Shown here piece by piece: positions 1 to 13,312 of a stretch of 64,000 bases of DNA. Position 1 is the first letter of the stretch, and every line of letters starts with the position of its first letter. The stretch lies in assembly GCA_000002445.1 (NCBI GenBank), contig CM000208.1:2528001-2592000 (forward strand). Direction: 5' to 3'. Under the pieces are notes generated by a model. That model saw nothing but the letters and a program-made list of their open reading frames with translations. It made no database searches and was not told the origin of the DNA. This DNA comes from Trypanosoma brucei. Lineage: Eukaryota. The translations under genes and the position numbers were made by a program.

Positions 1-953
1 TCCCGAACAATCTGGACCACCTTCCTCTTGTCCGCCGCGGGCGAACCCTCTACACGCTGATTGAGCTTCGACACCACCGTGTCTGCAGGATGAGACACTG
101 CTGCACAAAGGAAACCGGCAAGTACACCAGATATGACCGACACCAACAGCTGAACGTACTTCGGTGCGGGGTCACTAGGGGACGTTAACAAATAGCGATA
201 CGCCAGGCGTACAATAACCTCGAAGCTGAGAAATTTGACAACGGTGTAGGGAACCTGTCGGCACCAGAGTGCCGGAAGACCCTTATAAAACCCATAGATA
301 CCCTCACTTGAGTACACAAGCGGAAAGAAATACGACAACTCCGTATGGGCAACATTTGATGTTTGGATAATGATTTTGACAGCCTCCCAGGGTGCCAAAG
401 CAACGTCGGCGAAGATCTCAGCTACACCGCTAGAGACGACAAAAATACCCAATTTGCTAACATAGCTGAGCACCATCGGAGATGCGGCAGATCCTTCAAG
501 CCTTGAGCAAAACCAAAACTTCAGTAACTCATACAACAAAAATTTTAGACCACCCTGTGAGGAATAACCAAAAAAAGTAGGAACCCACCCTCTCGTAAAC
601 ACTGAAATCGACCGAAACCAACACCCACCACAATTCCTCCACAAAGAGCGAAAACCGTCTGTCATAGAATTGTACAGTCCAACCTGCACACCACATTTTA
701 CCAAATCAACAGGAGTCATGGACGTATGGGCCAAACCACTAATGACACCACCAAGAAAGCAACAAAAAAAATAAAATGCGGAAAACTCGACAACAACACG
801 CCTACTCCACACGAATAAAAAAGATAAAGTAAAAAAAACAAAATAAACAAAAAACAAACGATAAGCAACATAATCACCTTCAAATGAAAATAACCGCGAC
901 ACAACCACAAAATAGAGCCTACATTTCCCTAAAAAATCAAATCGACCTAACAT
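1..953 (-). CDS. mitochondrial carrier family protein, phosphate-carrier-like (partial; 3' end lies beyond window start; not in supplied ORF track because no in-window stop codon)
   Basis: Manual minus-strand translation from ATG (plus-strand 'cat' 951-953) is stop-free down to position 1. Contains GGVISGLAHTSM-TPVDLVKCGVQV (carrier PxD/ExxK/R signature), GYSSQGGLKF, AEIFADVALAPWEAVKIII, QVPYTVVKFLSFE and SHPADTVVSKLN, a pattern matching Mir1/PiC-type phosphate carriers. The first 78 codons are T-rich and Phe-rich, so start is uncertain. The alternative ATG at 717-719 would cut off the conserved first helix. Confidence 0.75.
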   Translation of the reverse strand, partial: MLGRFDFLGKCRLYFVVVSRLFSFEGDYVAYRLFFVYFVFFTLSFLFVWSRRVVVEFSAFYFFCCFLGGVISGLAHTSMTPVDLVKCGVQVGLYNSMTDGFRSLWRNCGGCWFRSISVFTRGWVPTFFGYSSQGGLKFLLYELLKFWFCSRLEGSAASPMVLSYVSKLGIFVVSSGVAEIFADVALAPWEAVKIIIQTSNVAHTELSYFFPLVYSSEGIYGFYKGLPALWCRQVPYTVVKFLSFEVIVRLAYRYLLTSPSDPAPKYVQLLVSVISGVLAGFLCAAVSHPADTVVSKLNQRVEGSPAADKRKVVQIVR

Positions 954-1057
954 TTACCTAAAAGAAAGGAAACAGAGGGAAAAAAATAAAACAAAAAAAA
1001 CAAAACAAAATACAAAAAAATACAAAAAATAAACAAAAACGGAGAGATTTAGGATGT

Positions 1058-1534
<477 letters not shown>

Positions 1535-1965
1535 TCAACGCACAGGTAACACGAGGGCAGCGCACGCAAGTCAAAGGGGAGAGGAAGATTATGTGACCGC
1601 ACAGCAACAGCAGCAAGCGCGGGTAACAGCTGACAGCGACTTCTTTGCCATGACACGCTGCCTTGCATAGCAGTACATAGCGCCTGCGGCCACACCGATA
1701 CATACACACTGTGAAATACGCTAGCGGTGCCAAAAGCGAATGCGAATGCCTTCATGTCAGCGCGTGGACCACACGCACACACACACACACGAAAAGAACG
1801 AAGGCAGCGGCACATTCTGGCAAACAGTGAAATCTATCACCACCACAAGGAGAGGGTATGGTGGGGGGAAAATAAAAAAGAAAAGGAATATCAATGCCTC
1901 ACCTGAGGGGCACTGAGGGATCTAATGTCAAGGTGGCAAACCAAAGGTCTCCTGATGTAGGGTGT

Positions 1966-2442
<477 letters not shown>

Positions 2443-2754
2443 TCAACGCACAGGTAACACGAGGGCAGCGCACGCAAGTCAAAGGGGAGAGGAAGATTAT
2501 GTGACCGCACAGCAACAGCAGCAAGCGCGGGTAACAGCTGACAGCGACTTCTTTGCCATGACACGCTGCCTTGCATAGCAGTACATAGCGCCTGCGGCCA
2601 CACCGATACATACACACTGTGAAATGCGCTAGCGGTGCCAAAAGCGAATGCGAATGCCTTCATGTCAGCGCGTGGACCACACGCACACACACACACACGA
2701 AAAGAACGAAGGCAGCGGCACATTCTGGCAAACAGTGAAATCTATCACCACCAC

Positions 2755-2797
2755 AAGGAGAGGGTATGGTGGGGGGAAAATAAAAAAGAAAAGGAAT
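2755..2797 (-). promoter_or_regulatory. second, G-rich then pyrimidine tract ~80 nt downstream of each H2B stop; likely polyadenylation or alternative splice-site determinant; length-polymorphic between units
   Basis: Plus strand aaggagagggtatggtggggggaaaataaaaaagaaaaggaat. The 5-nt gaaaa indel here accounts for the 903 versus 908 unit classes. Confidence 0.4.
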
Positions 2798-2873
2798 ATC
2801 AATGCCTCACCTGAGGGGCACTGAGGGATCTAATGTCAAGGTGGCAAACCAAAGGTCTCCTGATGTAGGATGT

Positions 2874-3350
<477 letters not shown>

Positions 3351-3776
3351 TCAACGCACAGGTAACACGAGGGCAGCGCACGCAAGTCAAAGGGGAGAGG
3401 AAGATTATGTGACCGCACAGCAACAGCAGCAGGCGCGGGTAACAGCTGACAGCGACTTCTTTGCCATGACACGCTGCCTTGCATAGCAGTACATAGCGCC
3501 TGCGGCCACACCGATACATACACACTGTGAAATGCGCTAGCGGTGCCAAAAGCGAATGCGAATGCCTTCGTGTCAGCGCGTGGACCACACGCACACACAC
3601 ACACACGAAAAGAACGAAGGCAGCGGCACATTCCGGCAAACAGTGAAATCTATCACCACCACAAGGAGAGGGTATGGTGGGGGGAAAATAAAAAAGGAAT
3701 ATCAATGCCTCACCTGAGGGGCACTGAGGGATCTAATGTCAAGGTGGCAAACCAAAGGTCTCCTGATGTAGGATGT

Positions 3777-4253
<477 letters not shown>

Positions 4254-4684
4254 TCAACGCACAGGTAACACGAGGGCAGCGCACGCAAGTCAAAGGGGAG
4301 AGGAAGATTATGTGACCGCACAGCAACAGCAGCAAGTGCGGGTAACAGCTGACAGCGACTTCTTTGCCATGACACGCTGCCTTGCATAGCAGTACATAGC
4401 GCCTGCGGCCACACCGATACATACACACTGTGAAATGCGCTAGCGGTGCCAAAAGCGAATGCGAATGCCTTCATGTCAGCGCGTGGACCACACGCACACA
4501 CACACACACGAAAAGAACGAAGGCAGCGGCACATTCTGGCAAACAGTGAAATCCATCACCACCACAAGGAGAGGGTATGGTGGGGGGAAAATAAAAAAGA
4601 AAAGGAATATCAATGCCTCACCTGAGGGGCACTGAGGGATCTAATGTCAAGGTGGCAAACCAAAGGTCTCCTGATGTAGGGTGT

Positions 4685-5161
<477 letters not shown>

Positions 5162-5587
5162 TCAACGCACAGGTAACACGAGGGCAGCGCACGCAAGTCA
5201 AAGGGGAGAGGAAGATTGTGTGACCGCACAGCAACAGCAGCAAGCGCGGGTAACAGCTGACAGCGACTTCTTTGCCATGACACGCTGCCTTGCATAGCAG
5301 TACATAGCGCCTGCGGCCACACCGATACATACACACTGTGAAATGCGCTAGCGGTGCCAAAAGCGAATGCGAATGCCTTCGTGTCAGCGCGTGGACCACA
5401 CGCACACACACACACACGAAAAGAACGAAGGCAGCGGCACATTCCGGCAAACAGTGAAATCCATCACCACCACAAGGAGAGGATATGGTGGGGGGAAAAT
5501 AAAAAAGGAATATCAATGCCTCACCTGAGGGGCACTGAGGGATCTAATGTCAAGGTGGCAAACCAAAGGTCTCCTGATGTAGGGTGT

Positions 5588-6064
<477 letters not shown>

Positions 6065-6495
6065 TCAACGCACAGGTAACACGAGGGCAGCGCACGCAAG
6101 TCAAAGGGGAGAGGAAGATTATGTGACCGCACAGCAACAGCAGCAGGCGCGGGTAACAGCTGACAGCGACTTCTTTGCCATGACACGCTGCCTTGCATAG
6201 CAGTACATAGCGCCTGCGGCCACACCGATACATACACACTGTGAAATGCGCTAGCGGTGCCAAAAGCGAATGCGAATGCCTTCGTGTCAGCGCGTGGACC
6301 ACACGCACACACACACACACGAAAAGAACGAAGGCAGCGGCACATTCCGGCAAACAGTGAAATCTATCACCACCACAAGGAGAGGGTATGGTGGGGGGAA
6401 AATAAAAAAGAAAAGGAATATCAATGCCTCACCTGAGGGGCACTGAGGGATCTAATGTCAAGGTGGCAAACCAAAGGTCTCCTGATGTAGGGTGT

Positions 6496-6972
<477 letters not shown>

Positions 6973-7403
6973 TCAACGCACAGGTAACACGAGGGCAGCG
7001 CACGCAAGTCAAAGGGGAGAGGAAGATTATGTGACCGCACAGCAACAGCAGCAGGGGCGGGTAACAGCTGACAGCGACTTCTTTGCCATGACACGCTGCC
7101 TTGCATAGCAGTACATAGCGCCTGCGGCCACACCGATACATACACACTGTGAAATGCGCTAGCGGTGCCAAAAGCGAATGCGAATGCCTTCGTGTCAGCG
7201 CGTGGACCACACGCACACACACACACACGAAAAGAACGAAGGCAGCGGCACATTCCGGCAAACAGTGAAATCTATCACCACCACAAGGAGAGGATATGGT
7301 GGGGGGAAAATAAAAAAGAAAAGGAATATCAATGCCTCACCTGAGGGGCACTGAGGGATCTAATGTCAAGGTGGCAAACCAAAGGTCTCCTGATGTAGGA
7401 TGT

Positions 7404-7880
<477 letters not shown>

Positions 7881-8305
7881 TCAACGCACAGGTAACACGA
7901 GGGCAGCGCACGCAAGTCAAAGGGGAGAGGAAGATTATGTGACCGCACAGCAACAGCAGCAGGCGCGGGTAACAGCTGACAGCGACTTCTTTGCCATGAC
8001 ACGCTGCCTTGCATAGCAGTACATAGCGCCTGCGGCCACACCGATACATACACACTGTGAAATGCGCTAGCGGTGCCAAAAGCGAATGCGAATGCCTTCG
8101 TGTCAGCGCGTGGACCACACGCACACACACACACACGAAAAGAACGAAGGCAGCGGCACATTCCGGCAAACAGTGAAATCTATCACCACCACAAGGAGAG
8201 GATATGGTGGGGGAAAATAAAAAAGGAATATCAATGCCTCACCTGAGGGGCACTGAGGGATCTAATGTCAAGGTGGCAAACCAAAGGTCTCCTGATGTAG
8301 GATGT

Positions 8306-8782
<477 letters not shown>

Positions 8783-9208
8783 TCAACGCACAGGTAACAC
8801 GAGGGCAGCGCACGCAAGTCAAAGGGGAGAGGAAGATTATGTGACCGCACAGCAACAGCAGCAAGCGCGGGTAACAGCTGACAGCGACTTCTTTGCCATG
8901 ACACGCTGCCTTGCATAGCAGTACATAGCGCCTGCGGCCACACCGATACATACACACTGTGAAATGCGCTAGCGGTGCCAAAAGCGAATGCGAATGCCTT
9001 CGTGTCAGCGCGTGGACCACACGCACACACACACACACGAAAAGAACGAAGGCAGCGGCACATTCCGGCAAACAGTGAAATCTATCACCACCACAAGGAG
9101 AGGGTATGGTGGGGGGAAAATAAAAAAGGAATATCAATGCCTCACCTGAGGGGCACTGAGGGATCTAATGTCAAGGTGGCAAACCAAAGGTCTCCTGATG
9201 TAGGGTGT

Positions 9209-9685
<477 letters not shown>

Positions 9686-10116
9686 TCAACGCACAGGTAA
9701 CACGAGGGCAGCGCACGCAAGTCAAAGGGGAGAGGAAGATTGTGTGACCGCACAGCAACAGCAGCAGGCGCGGGTAACAGCTGACAGCGACTTCTTTGCC
9801 ATGACACGCTGCCTTGCATAGCAGTACATAGCGCTTGCGGCCACACCGATACATACACACTGTGAAATGCGCTAGCGGTGCCAAAAGCGAATGCGAATGC
9901 CTTCGTGTCAGCGCGTGGACCACACGCACACACACACACACGAAAAGAACGAAGGCAGCGGCACATTCCGGCAAACAGTGAAATCCATCACCACCACAAG
10001 GAGAGGGTATGGTGGGGGGAAAATAAAAAAGAAAAGGAATATCAATGCCTCACCTGAGGGGCACTGAGGGATCTAATGTCAAGGTGGCAAACCAAAGGTC
10101 TCCTGATGTAGGGTGT

Positions 10117-10593
<477 letters not shown>

Positions 10594-11024
10594 TCAACGC
10601 ACAGGTAACACGAGGGCAGCGCACGCAAGTCAAAGGGGAGAGGAAGATTATGTGACCGCACAGCAACAGCAGCAAGCGCGGGTAACAGCTGACAGCGACT
10701 TCTTTGCCATGACACGCTGCCTTGCATAGCAGTACATAGCGCCTGCGGCCACACCGATACATACACACTGTGAAATGCGCTAGCGGTGCCAAAAGCGAAT
10801 GCGAATGCCTTCGTGTCAGCGCGTGGACCACACGCACACACACACACACGAAAAGAACGAAGGCAGCGGCACATTCCGGCAAACAGTGAAATCTATCACC
10901 ACCACAAGGAGAGGGTATGGTGGGGGGAAAATAAAAAAGAAAAGGAATATCAATGCCTCACCTGAGGGGCACTGAGGGATCTAATGTCAAGGTGGCAAAC
11001 CAAAGGTCTCCTGATGTAGGATGT

Positions 11025-11501
<477 letters not shown>

Positions 11502-11927
11502 TCAACGCACAGGTAACACGAGGGCAGCGCACGCAAGTCAAAGGGGAGAGGAAGATTATGTGACCGCACAGCAACAGCAGCAGGCGCGGGTAACAGCTGA
11601 CAGCGACTTCTTTGCCATGACACGCTGCCTTGCATAGCAGTACATAGCGCCTGCGGCCACACCGATACATACACACTGTGAAATGCGCTAGCGGTGCCAA
11701 AAGCGAATGCGAATGCCTTCGTGTCAGCGCGTGGACCACACGCACACACACACACACGAAAAGAACGAAGGCAGCGGCACATTCCGGCAAACAGTGAAAT
11801 CTATCACCACCACAAGGAGAGGGTATGGTGGGGGGAAAATAAAAAAGGAATATCAATGCCTCACCTGAGGGGCACTGAGGGATCTAATGTCAAGGTGGCA
11901 AACCAAAGGTCTCCTGATGTAGGGTGT

Positions 11928-12404
<477 letters not shown>

Positions 12405-12835
12405 TCAACGCACAGGTAACACGAGGGCAGCGCACGCAAGTCAAAGGGGAGAGGAAGATTATGTGACCGCACAGCAACAGCAGCAAGCGCGGGTAACAGC
12501 TGACAGCGACTTCTTTGCCATGACACGCTGCCTTGCATAGCAGTACATAGCGCCTGCGGCCACACCGATACATACACACTGTGAAATGCGCTAGCGGTGC
12601 CAAAAGCGAATGCGAATGCCTTCGTGTCAGCGCGTGGACCACACGCACACACACACACACGAAAAGAACGAAGGCAGCGGCACATTCCGGCAAACAGTGA
12701 AATCTATCACCACCACAAGGAGAGGGTATGGTGGGGGGAAAATAAAAAAGAAAAGGAATATCAATGCCTCACCTGAGGGGCACTGAGGGATCTAATGTCA
12801 AGGTGGCAAACCAAAGGTCTCCTGATGTAGGATGT

Positions 12836-13312
<477 letters not shown>

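Follow-up and report, generated by a model that had tools for sequence, protein, structure and literature searches.

Mitochondrial carriers normally insert into the membrane without N-terminal signals and have N-termini that face the intermembrane space; the N-terminal region of the animal phosphate carrier (SLC25A3/PiC) is a cleavable presequence. In Trypanosoma brucei the canonical, abundant phosphate carrier is TbMCP11, whose predicted substrate class is the same as that of TbMCP8 (hereafter MCP8), and the inventory of carriers in this organism reportedly places MCP8 among the phosphate carriers. A stretch of 64,000 nucleotides (nt) of T. brucei DNA (assembly GCA_000002445.1, contig CM000208.1, positions 2,528,001 to 2,592,000 of the forward strand), called the window below, was analysed, and the minus strand of its first 953 nt was found to carry the 5′ part of MCP8, directly downstream of the last copy of a histone H2B array. 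The reading favoured here, to which a probability of about 0.7 is given as a whole, is that this frame is MCP8, that its coding region starts at the ATG at window position 953 (ATG953), that its N-terminus adds one helix to the carrier fold, that a spliced-leader acceptor lies inside the open reading frame (ORF), and that the 5′ part of the ORF overlaps the 3′ untranslated region (3′UTR) of the last H2B copy.

Identity and carrier type of the frame at the window start

A preliminary description of this DNA, made from its letters, had claimed a minus-strand ORF that leaves the window start and is absent from the list of ORFs, and this was confirmed: retranslation from 953 to 1 gave 317 codons beginning with MLGRFDFLGK, with no stop and thus no disruption of the frame. 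An in-frame TAG is located one codon upstream of ATG953, which is therefore the most upstream start possible in its frame. The ORF list of the window starts at 1058 and lacks the MCP8 frame because ORFs leaving the source are not listed. In the T-rich part of the frame (953-555) there is no stop in the 133 codons of frame 0, against 5 and 7 in the other two frames, and 33 of 20,000 composition-matched shuffles of this part (0.17%) stayed open; the openness of the frame exceeds chance.

A protein search returned a T. brucei 'mitochondrial carrier protein' of 380 amino acids (aa) at about 100% identity, and the TREU927 entry (XP_823265.1, UniProt Q389T3, 380 aa) equals the window translation over all 317 residues. 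In Table S1 of Kolev et al. (2010), Tb10.406.0470 ('mitochondrial carrier protein putative') is placed on the minus strand of chromosome 10 with an ORF of 2528953-2527811; because this ORF start is window position 953, subtraction of 2,528,000 from a chromosome 10 (v4) coordinate gives the window coordinate. Tb10.406.0470 is equated with Tb927.10.10440 and named 'mitochondrial carrier protein (MCP8)' in the available part of Supplementary Data 2a of Peikert et al. (2017). The leftward extension to a stop was read in the genome of T. b. equiperdum, where the frame runs for 63 further codons and ends in TGA; codons 318-380 and the TGA stop fall beyond the window start. At MCP8 the window differs from T. 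b. equiperdum by one single-nucleotide polymorphism (SNP; G3C in the protein) and a 10-bp indel in the upstream T-tract. The 380-aa model is retained in the current annotations of four T. brucei-group genomes, with no stop or frameshift in its 380 codons. Intraspecific amino-acid substitutions were seen only within the first 11 residues of MCP8: T. b. equiperdum carries G3C and T. b. gambiense C11F.

The identity is thus undoubted: window 1-953, read on the minus strand, holds codons 1-317 of an already annotated and named gene, with the same sequence, ATG and chromosomal coordinates as the TbMCP8 of the carrier inventory of Colasante et al. (2009), and the window merely truncates it. As the result of a scan it carries little weight, being an annotated, named gene concealed from the ORF list by the window edge. 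Full-text searches for MCP8, TbMCP8 and the gene identifiers gave no match, and none was found in the available part of the supplements of Dolezelova (2020) or in the texts of Taleva (2023) and Colasante (2013).

Blocks of the mitochondrial-carrier signature had been noted in the preliminary description, and the Pfam profile Mito_carr (PF00153) indeed matched the 317-codon part with two repeats (E=1.2e-28) and full-length MCP8 with three (E=2.8e-37), the family being defined by three repeats in tandem, each of about 100 residues. The scores were 99.1 and 126.8 bits, respectively, where 22.3 bits suffice. A sequence search of solved structures with the MCP8 translation led to UCP1. An AlphaFold2 model built from a 32-sequence alignment (pLDDT 85.2, pTM 0.82) has the six-helix carrier fold plus one extra N-terminal helix, and its best Foldseek matches were UCP1 (8g8w, 8hbv) and the ADP/ATP carrier (6gci, 1okc), with a probability of 1.00 and a TM-score on the target of 0.62-0.69. 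The resemblance to phosphate carriers stood as well, both in the closest named relatives and in the subfamily motifs. Beyond the trypanosomatids, every homologue with a specific name is a phosphate carrier (SLC25A3/PiC, K15102; 43-47% identity), other entries being generic ('hypothetical' or 'unnamed'), and the carrier core is 47-48% identical to the bee and nematode PiC (Apis, Caenorhabditis). The phosphate-carrier-type motifs are GLAHT...PVDLVKCGVQ, PWEAVKIIIQ, LWCRQVPYT and SHPADTVVSKLNQ. MCP8 belongs to the mitochondrial carrier family (SLC25), with motifs of the phosphate-carrier type.

In the 32-sequence alignment, T. brucei included, H76 (helix 1), D83/K86, E190/K193, R232-Q233, S287-HPAD-291 and Q299 are invariant; from the yeast and bovine literature we take H76, R232-Q233 and SHPAD..SKLNQ to be functionally critical. 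Of the signature P-x-[DE]-x-x-[KR]-x-[RK], which carriers have on helices 1, 3 and 5, motifs 1 and 2 (PVDLVK and PWEAVK, respectively) keep the Pro, the acidic residue and the leading basic one, and thus the salt-bridge residues, while the trailing basic position is occupied by Gly (G88) in motif 1 and by Ile (I195) in motif 2; the sequence PADTVVSK of motif 3 is common to all phosphate carriers. In an 11-way alignment extending from kinetoplastids to animals, position 88 (window 690-692) is Gly in T. brucei alone and Arg in 10/10 other sequences, and position 195 (window 369-371) is Ile in T. brucei alone and Lys or Arg in 10/10 others. G88 and I195 may signal altered transport properties or relaxed constraint.

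The internal spliced-leader site, the annotated start and the predicted N-terminal helix

Mapping of the spliced-leader acceptor, named in the preliminary description as the way to define the start, has been published and places the site inside the ORF: in Table S1 of Kolev et al. (2010) the 5′-most spliced-leader site of this gene in procyclic YTat1.1 is chromosome 10 position 2528554, or window 554, which is 399 nt inside the ORF, and MCP8 is listed under 'misannotated translation start codon'. The sequence at window 554 reads cctactttttttggttattcctcacAG/GGTGG, with the AG exactly at the published coordinate. Codon Q133 ends with this AG and G134 is the opening codon of the exon, Gln133-Gly134 being invariant; the peptide GWVPTFFGYSSQGGLK bridges the splice site, and the acceptor is preceded by pyrimidine-rich Pro-Thr-Phe-Phe...Ser-Ser codons. 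If the mRNA begins at 554, the first AUG that it contains is out of frame (at 532, encoding MSY and a stop) and is followed by that of M160. Downstream of ATG953 the next in-frame AUG is that of M79, and a start there removes helix 1.

The 50 nt before the candidate acceptor upstream of the ORF (AG959/958) are 90% pyrimidine, and the polypyrimidine tract ends 2 nt before this AG. With its 88 nt the tract exceeds the range of 7-79 nt given for such tracts by Kolev et al. (2010), whereas that of site 554 is short and interrupted. AG959/958 is not given as a 5′ end in Table S1 of the same study, the available part of its tables holds no further feature in this interval, and the supplements of Nilsson (2010), which contain splice-site data, have no MCP8 entry.

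Membership of the 'misannotated' class implies that all mapped sites are located downstream of the annotated AUG, as they are for MCP8, and that the sequence from the AUG to the acceptor is non-coding, which its conservation and open frame contradict. Residues 58-133, upstream of the internal site, are 46-62% identical to the orthologues, the same range as for repeats 2 and 3, and residues C65, G68, G69, G73, H76, P81, D83, K86, C87, Q90, G122, W123, P125, Q133 and G134 within 58-134 are invariant. Because the conservation of residues 58-133 equals that of the remaining carrier, the misannotation reading fails on its own premise, and the published call of a misannotated start codon is almost certainly wrong for MCP8; the evolutionary coding region starts at ATG953. 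The suggestion in the preliminary description that the real start or processing differs from the obvious ATG accordingly has support for processing, from the published acceptor inside the ORF, and is contradicted for a downstream start by the conservation of residues 58-133. The position of a splice site alone can thus mislead re-annotation where T-rich codons for hydrophobic residues resemble polypyrimidine tracts.

The N-terminus had been described as encoded by a T-rich, poly-Phe tract, of which T- and Phe-richness were borne out and literal poly-Phe was not. The first 180 nt of MCP8 contain 53% T (57% at third codon positions), compared with 65% in the spacer upstream and 25-29% in further long ORFs of the window, and 14 Phe fall in residues 1-60 against 19 in the following 257. 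The unusual hydrophobic presequence, proposed at the same time, corresponds to a hydrophobic segment that is present and conserved in kinetoplastid orthologues. In the AlphaFold2 model residues 28-50 are helical (block pLDDT about 57-85) and residues 1-27 are of low confidence. The best 19-residue Kyte-Doolittle window of the T. brucei N-terminus is 1.94; in 9/9 kinetoplastid-type proteins the 19-residue maximum was 1.9-3.0 and located 12-22 residues before the helix-1 motif, whereas the N-terminal maxima of the bee and nematode carriers were 0.5 and 0.2, respectively. In a wider set, the layout of extension, helix and linker was found in 28/28 non-animal homologues, with linkers of 12-27 residues. 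A matching N-terminal extension is present in all full-length kinetoplastid orthologues, and the same architecture is encoded in T. grayi, T. cruzi, T. vivax, T. conorhini, Leishmania, Leptomonas, Neobodo and a prokinetoplastid, the N-terminus of the T. cruzi orthologue being likewise T- and Phe-rich. Since the layout is kept across kinetoplastid orthologues, the hydrophobic N-terminus is a feature of the orthologue group and no artefact of annotation. We hold with good confidence that the evolutionary start is ATG953 and that the hydrophobic N-terminus forms a conserved extra helix. The conservation of a helix before the carrier across Kinetoplastea raises the question of how a seven-helix carrier is imported and oriented; together with a carrier N-terminus facing the intermembrane space, the extra helix would put the extreme N-terminus on the matrix side.

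Public models of the orthologues in T. theileri and T. melophagium (P0006) have 300 aa and start at the Met equivalent to M79. In T. theileri (L002:2707-3000) the frame is open for 98 codons further upstream and encodes MGEKQY..., a hydrophobic helix and carrier helix 1, so that the public model of this species is N-terminally truncated. The T. theileri models are ab initio (Augustus/GeneMarkES), and for both reasons the 300-aa models were rejected as independent support for internal splicing. Ab initio gene finders, which cut the T. theileri orthologue, and probably that of T. melophagium, at the M79 equivalent, thus err in the mirror image of the Kolev call.

A procyclic mRNA starting at 554 would lack the extension and most of repeat 1 and would encode just a 221-aa two-repeat fragment; for that reason it is probably non-productive. 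The M160 product was rejected as a plausible protein, since it has two Mito_carr repeats only and was judged non-functional as a carrier; we know of no functional two-repeat carrier. Full-length protein requires the unreported acceptor AG959/958 and would therefore probably be scarce or stage-restricted. For the proposal that internal, non-productive splicing predominates in procyclics and leaves full-length expression scarce or stage-restricted, the chances are put at about even. The coordinates of the features are compiled in Table 1.

Table 1. Features at and near the window start (window coordinates)
Feature	Position	Strand	Basis or remark
TbMCP8 codons 1-317	1..953	minus	Tb927.10.10440 / Tb10.406.0470, phosphate-carrier-like mitochondrial carrier
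Carrier signature motif 3, phosphate-carrier type, PADTVVSKLNQ (P289-Q299)	57..89	minus	alignment
Carrier signature motif 2, PWEAVKIIIQ (P188-Q197)	363..392	minus	alignment
First in-frame AUG after the internal acceptor, M160	474..476	minus	221-aa product, carrier repeats 2 and 3 only
AG of the published 5′-most spliced-leader site	555..556	minus	Kolev et al. (2010) Table S1; first exon nt 554
Carrier signature motif 1, PVDLVKCGVQ (P81-Q90)	684..713	minus	alignment
N-terminal extension, residues 1-60	774..953	minus	T-rich, 14 Phe, no Pfam match, precedes carrier helix 1
Predicted extra membrane-type helix, residues 28-50 (YVAYRLFFVYFVFFTLSFLFVWS)	804..872	minus	AlphaFold2 and hydropathy
Candidate spliced-leader acceptor AG	958..959	minus	no other AG between it and the tract; 4 nt upstream of ATG953; predicted only
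88-nt polypyrimidine tract	960..1047	minus	between H2B stop and ATG953, by the tract definition of Kolev et al. (2010)
Last (14th) H2B copy, Tb927.10.10460	1058..1396	minus	Pfam Histone; 104 nt upstream of ATG953

The histone H2B neighbour and explanations of the internal site

The coding sequence (CDS) of the last H2B copy equals the array consensus, with 0 nt differences from copy 2. Its 3′ flank (954-1057) shares about 14 nt with the inter-copy spacer (1397-1965) and then passes into the 88-nt T-rich tract, so that the last copy must have a 3′UTR and poly(A) site unlike those of the other 13. There are 104 nt between the H2B stop and the carrier ATG in T. brucei; T. grayi has 351 nt there and T. 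cruzi 275 nt. Median values in Kolev et al. (2010) are 142 nt from poly(A) site to acceptor and 388 nt for the 3′UTR. With the median spacing, the H2B poly(A) site would fall within the H2B ORF, by about 42 nt, if the acceptor were at 957; with the acceptor at 554 it would fall near window 696, giving a 3′UTR of about 361 nt, near the 388-nt median. Because the spacer between H2B and MCP8 is only 104 nt, the start of the MCP8 ORF probably serves as the 3′UTR of the last H2B copy, as judged from spacing; the first 250-400 nt or so of the ORF would then double as the 3′UTR and processing region of this copy.

If the internal site is the main one in procyclics, MCP8 would be a tractable case of a coding sequence serving the processing of its neighbour. 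A more far-reaching proposal, that MCP8-type proteins are kinetoplastid-wide seven-helix phosphate-carrier paralogues with an N-terminal membrane anchor and that full-length expression in T. brucei is gated by two competing acceptors, the one inside the ORF defining the 3′ end of the last H2B, is regarded as doubtful. If it is true, one stretch of about 400 nt would switch between a coding state and a state in which it is the 3′UTR and processing region of H2B, and the full-length protein would be restricted to particular life-cycle stages.

The 14 H2B genes form a tandem array on the minus strand at window 1058-13174 (Tb927.10.10460-10590, identifiers of the copies being taken from the available part of Supplementary Data 2 of Peikert et al. 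2017), with units alternating between 908 and 902/903 nt. There are five CDS versions and three protein versions, the differences being located in the two most upstream copies, at 11928 and 12836, and in that at 7404.

Two other trypanosomes likewise have H2B directly upstream of the MCP8 orthologue, namely T. grayi (L004:2314-2649, 83% identity to T. brucei H2B) and T. cruzi (L005:78-416, 80% identity); the T. grayi copy has no Pfam mark in the precomputed table. Insertion of the H2B array as a cause of displacement of the MCP8 5′ signals was accordingly rejected, H2B being directly upstream in these two species too and spacer length alone being different. In T. vivax no obvious H2B was seen on reading the stretch between P16-Arc and the carrier (L003:2220-3000). 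The downstream order of MCP8, a protein of about 330-360 aa without Pfam match, monothiol glutaredoxin (Tb927.10.10420) and MCM8 (Tb927.10.10410) is kept in all trypanosomes examined (L001:5668-9143, L002-L005), and no glutaredoxin was called at the T. cruzi locus. Synteny of MCP8 is conserved across Trypanosoma.

Five Logan transcript-like contigs (ERR7929156-62), which look like RNA-seq assemblies, run unbroken from the H2B 3′ end through the T-tract and ATG953 over the whole MCP8 ORF. In two of the five the end coincides with the poly(A) site of Kolev et al. (2010), exactly 351 nt after the MCP8 stop. No spliced-leader sequence was found on the five contigs, which are silent on acceptor choice because they start at the H2B repeat boundary, and the runs are not mentioned in the literature searched. 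The other three (L007:1545, L009:1542, L010:1541; equal to L001:~5411) end 268 nt after the stop at ...ttttcacagacgacAG, an AG at which the spliced leader is probably added to the downstream 344-aa gene; this putative acceptor is located 83 nt upstream of the 3′-most poly(A) site of MCP8, so that the two transcripts would overlap. Variants among the contigs are a synonymous GTC/GTT at codon V55 (window 789) and an in-frame TTG (an extra Leu) at codons 266-267 (RYL(L)LT, window ~153-155). At the protein level, the marks of MCP8 in the available part of Supplementary Data 2a of Peikert et al. (2017) are annotation, the Colasante carrier list and TargetP only, while MCP11 is there also marked in two proteomes (mitochondrial and membrane) and quantified with up to 21 peptides.

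Three other explanations of the internal site were weighed. Ordinary expression, in which every stage trans-splices upstream of ATG953 (at AG959/958 or elsewhere), with full-length protein of 380 aa and 554 as a minor or spurious site beside an under-sampled true one, would agree with the 88-nt tract and the first AG after it, the strongest possible upstream signal, with an ORF conserved throughout and kept as a 380-aa model in the four annotations, with contigs that span the full ORF, and with the finding of Kolev et al. (2010) that most genes have several acceptors and that the spliced leader can abut the AUG. Against this stand the 5′-most site from three deep spliced-leader libraries of that study, 399 nt inside the ORF, the lack of any other feature for the interval in the available part of its tables, and the lack of marks for MCP8, in the available part of the Peikert compilation, from procyclic mitochondrial proteomes where MCP11 is marked; this explanation is considered possible, although rather unlikely. 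A misannotated start, with the real product of 221 aa beginning at M160 and untranslated sequence upstream, is the classification in Table S1 of Kolev et al. (2010), and it would suit the UTR-like T-richness, all six T-runs of at least 6 nt being located upstream of 554 and none downstream. It is very improbable, since residues 58-133 keep the invariants of repeat 1 and are conserved like repeats 2 and 3, the frame is open where 0.17% of shuffles are, kinetoplastid orthologues encode the same N-terminal architecture, and the M160 product would have 2/3 of the family-defining repeats. Decay, in which MCP8 is a young unitary pseudogene that is still open after the loss of productive 5′ processing, would explain the internal position of the mapped acceptor, the T. 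brucei-specific losses of basic residues (R88G and K/R195I), the location of two of the few intraspecific amino-acid differences at residues 3 and 11, and the absence of proteome marks in the available part of the Peikert data. The core identity of the T. brucei protein to outgroups is, however, 47-52% against 45-56% for its relatives, the 380 codons contain no stop or frameshift in the four T. brucei-group genomes, the single indel observed keeps the frame, and the only SNP among RNA contigs in the upstream coding part is synonymous; decay is thus quite improbable. Accelerated evolution or decay of the T. brucei copy was likewise rejected as unsupported, the identity to outgroups being like that of relatives and even from segment to segment.

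Several points weigh against the favoured reading of conserved coding from ATG953 combined with internal splicing and H2B overlap. By signal strength the upstream acceptor should win, with its 88-nt tract against a short, interrupted one, and the absence of 957 from the Kolev table could reflect low tag counts, strain (YTat1.1 against TREU927) or stage. RNA over the whole MCP8 ORF exists, and it may be precursor. The absence of proteome marks for MCP8 in the available part of Supplementary Data 2a is a weak negative. The most likely function of MCP8 is to carry phosphate, or else a small anion closely related to it, across the inner mitochondrial membrane, which would proceed in the case of phosphate by Pi/H+ symport or Pi/OH- antiport; G88 and I195, being unique to T. 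brucei, mean that substrate or activity may differ from those of a canonical phosphate carrier. Residues 28-50 may act as a seventh membrane helix or a signal-anchor.

Comparison with known systems

The dual targeting of isoleucyl-tRNA synthetase in T. brucei by alternative trans-splicing (PMC3273800) resembles MCP8 in that the choice of acceptor decides on an N-terminal targeting segment; there both products are functional enzymes, whereas the short form of MCP8 would lose a third of the carrier domain. TbMCP11 (Tb927.9.10310) belongs to the same family and, like MCP8, to the mitochondrial reference set in the available Peikert data; by the table entries, on which this comparison is based, it has 34.3 kDa against about 42 kDa predicted for MCP8.

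Animal SLC25A3/PiC (Apis, Caenorhabditis) shares with MCP8 the His of helix 1 (H76), R232-Q233 in LWxRQ[VI]PYT and the unusual motif 3, SHPAD[TS]VVSKLNQ, and differs from it in having Arg and Lys/Arg where T. brucei has G88 and I195, respectively. Its N-terminal region is polar and without a hydrophobic helix, whereas MCP8-type proteins have a membrane-helix-like segment there. The kinetoplastid proteins annotated as 'phosphate carrier protein, mitochondrial precursor-like' (Leishmania, Leptomonas, Neobodo, prokinetoplastid PhF-6) are orthologues and share the layout of MCP8, with an extension, a hydrophobic segment of about 20 residues, a linker of 12-27 residues and the carrier. Most homologues outside Trypanosoma, including many unnamed environmental sequences, have [DE]R-x-C-[WF]-x-x-F just before the helix and often Trp just after it; the [DE]R-x-C-[WF] motif is degenerate in Trypanosoma, T. 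brucei included. The extensions of Leishmania have 128-150 residues, compared with 60 in T. brucei, where the extension is short and unusually rich in T and Phe.

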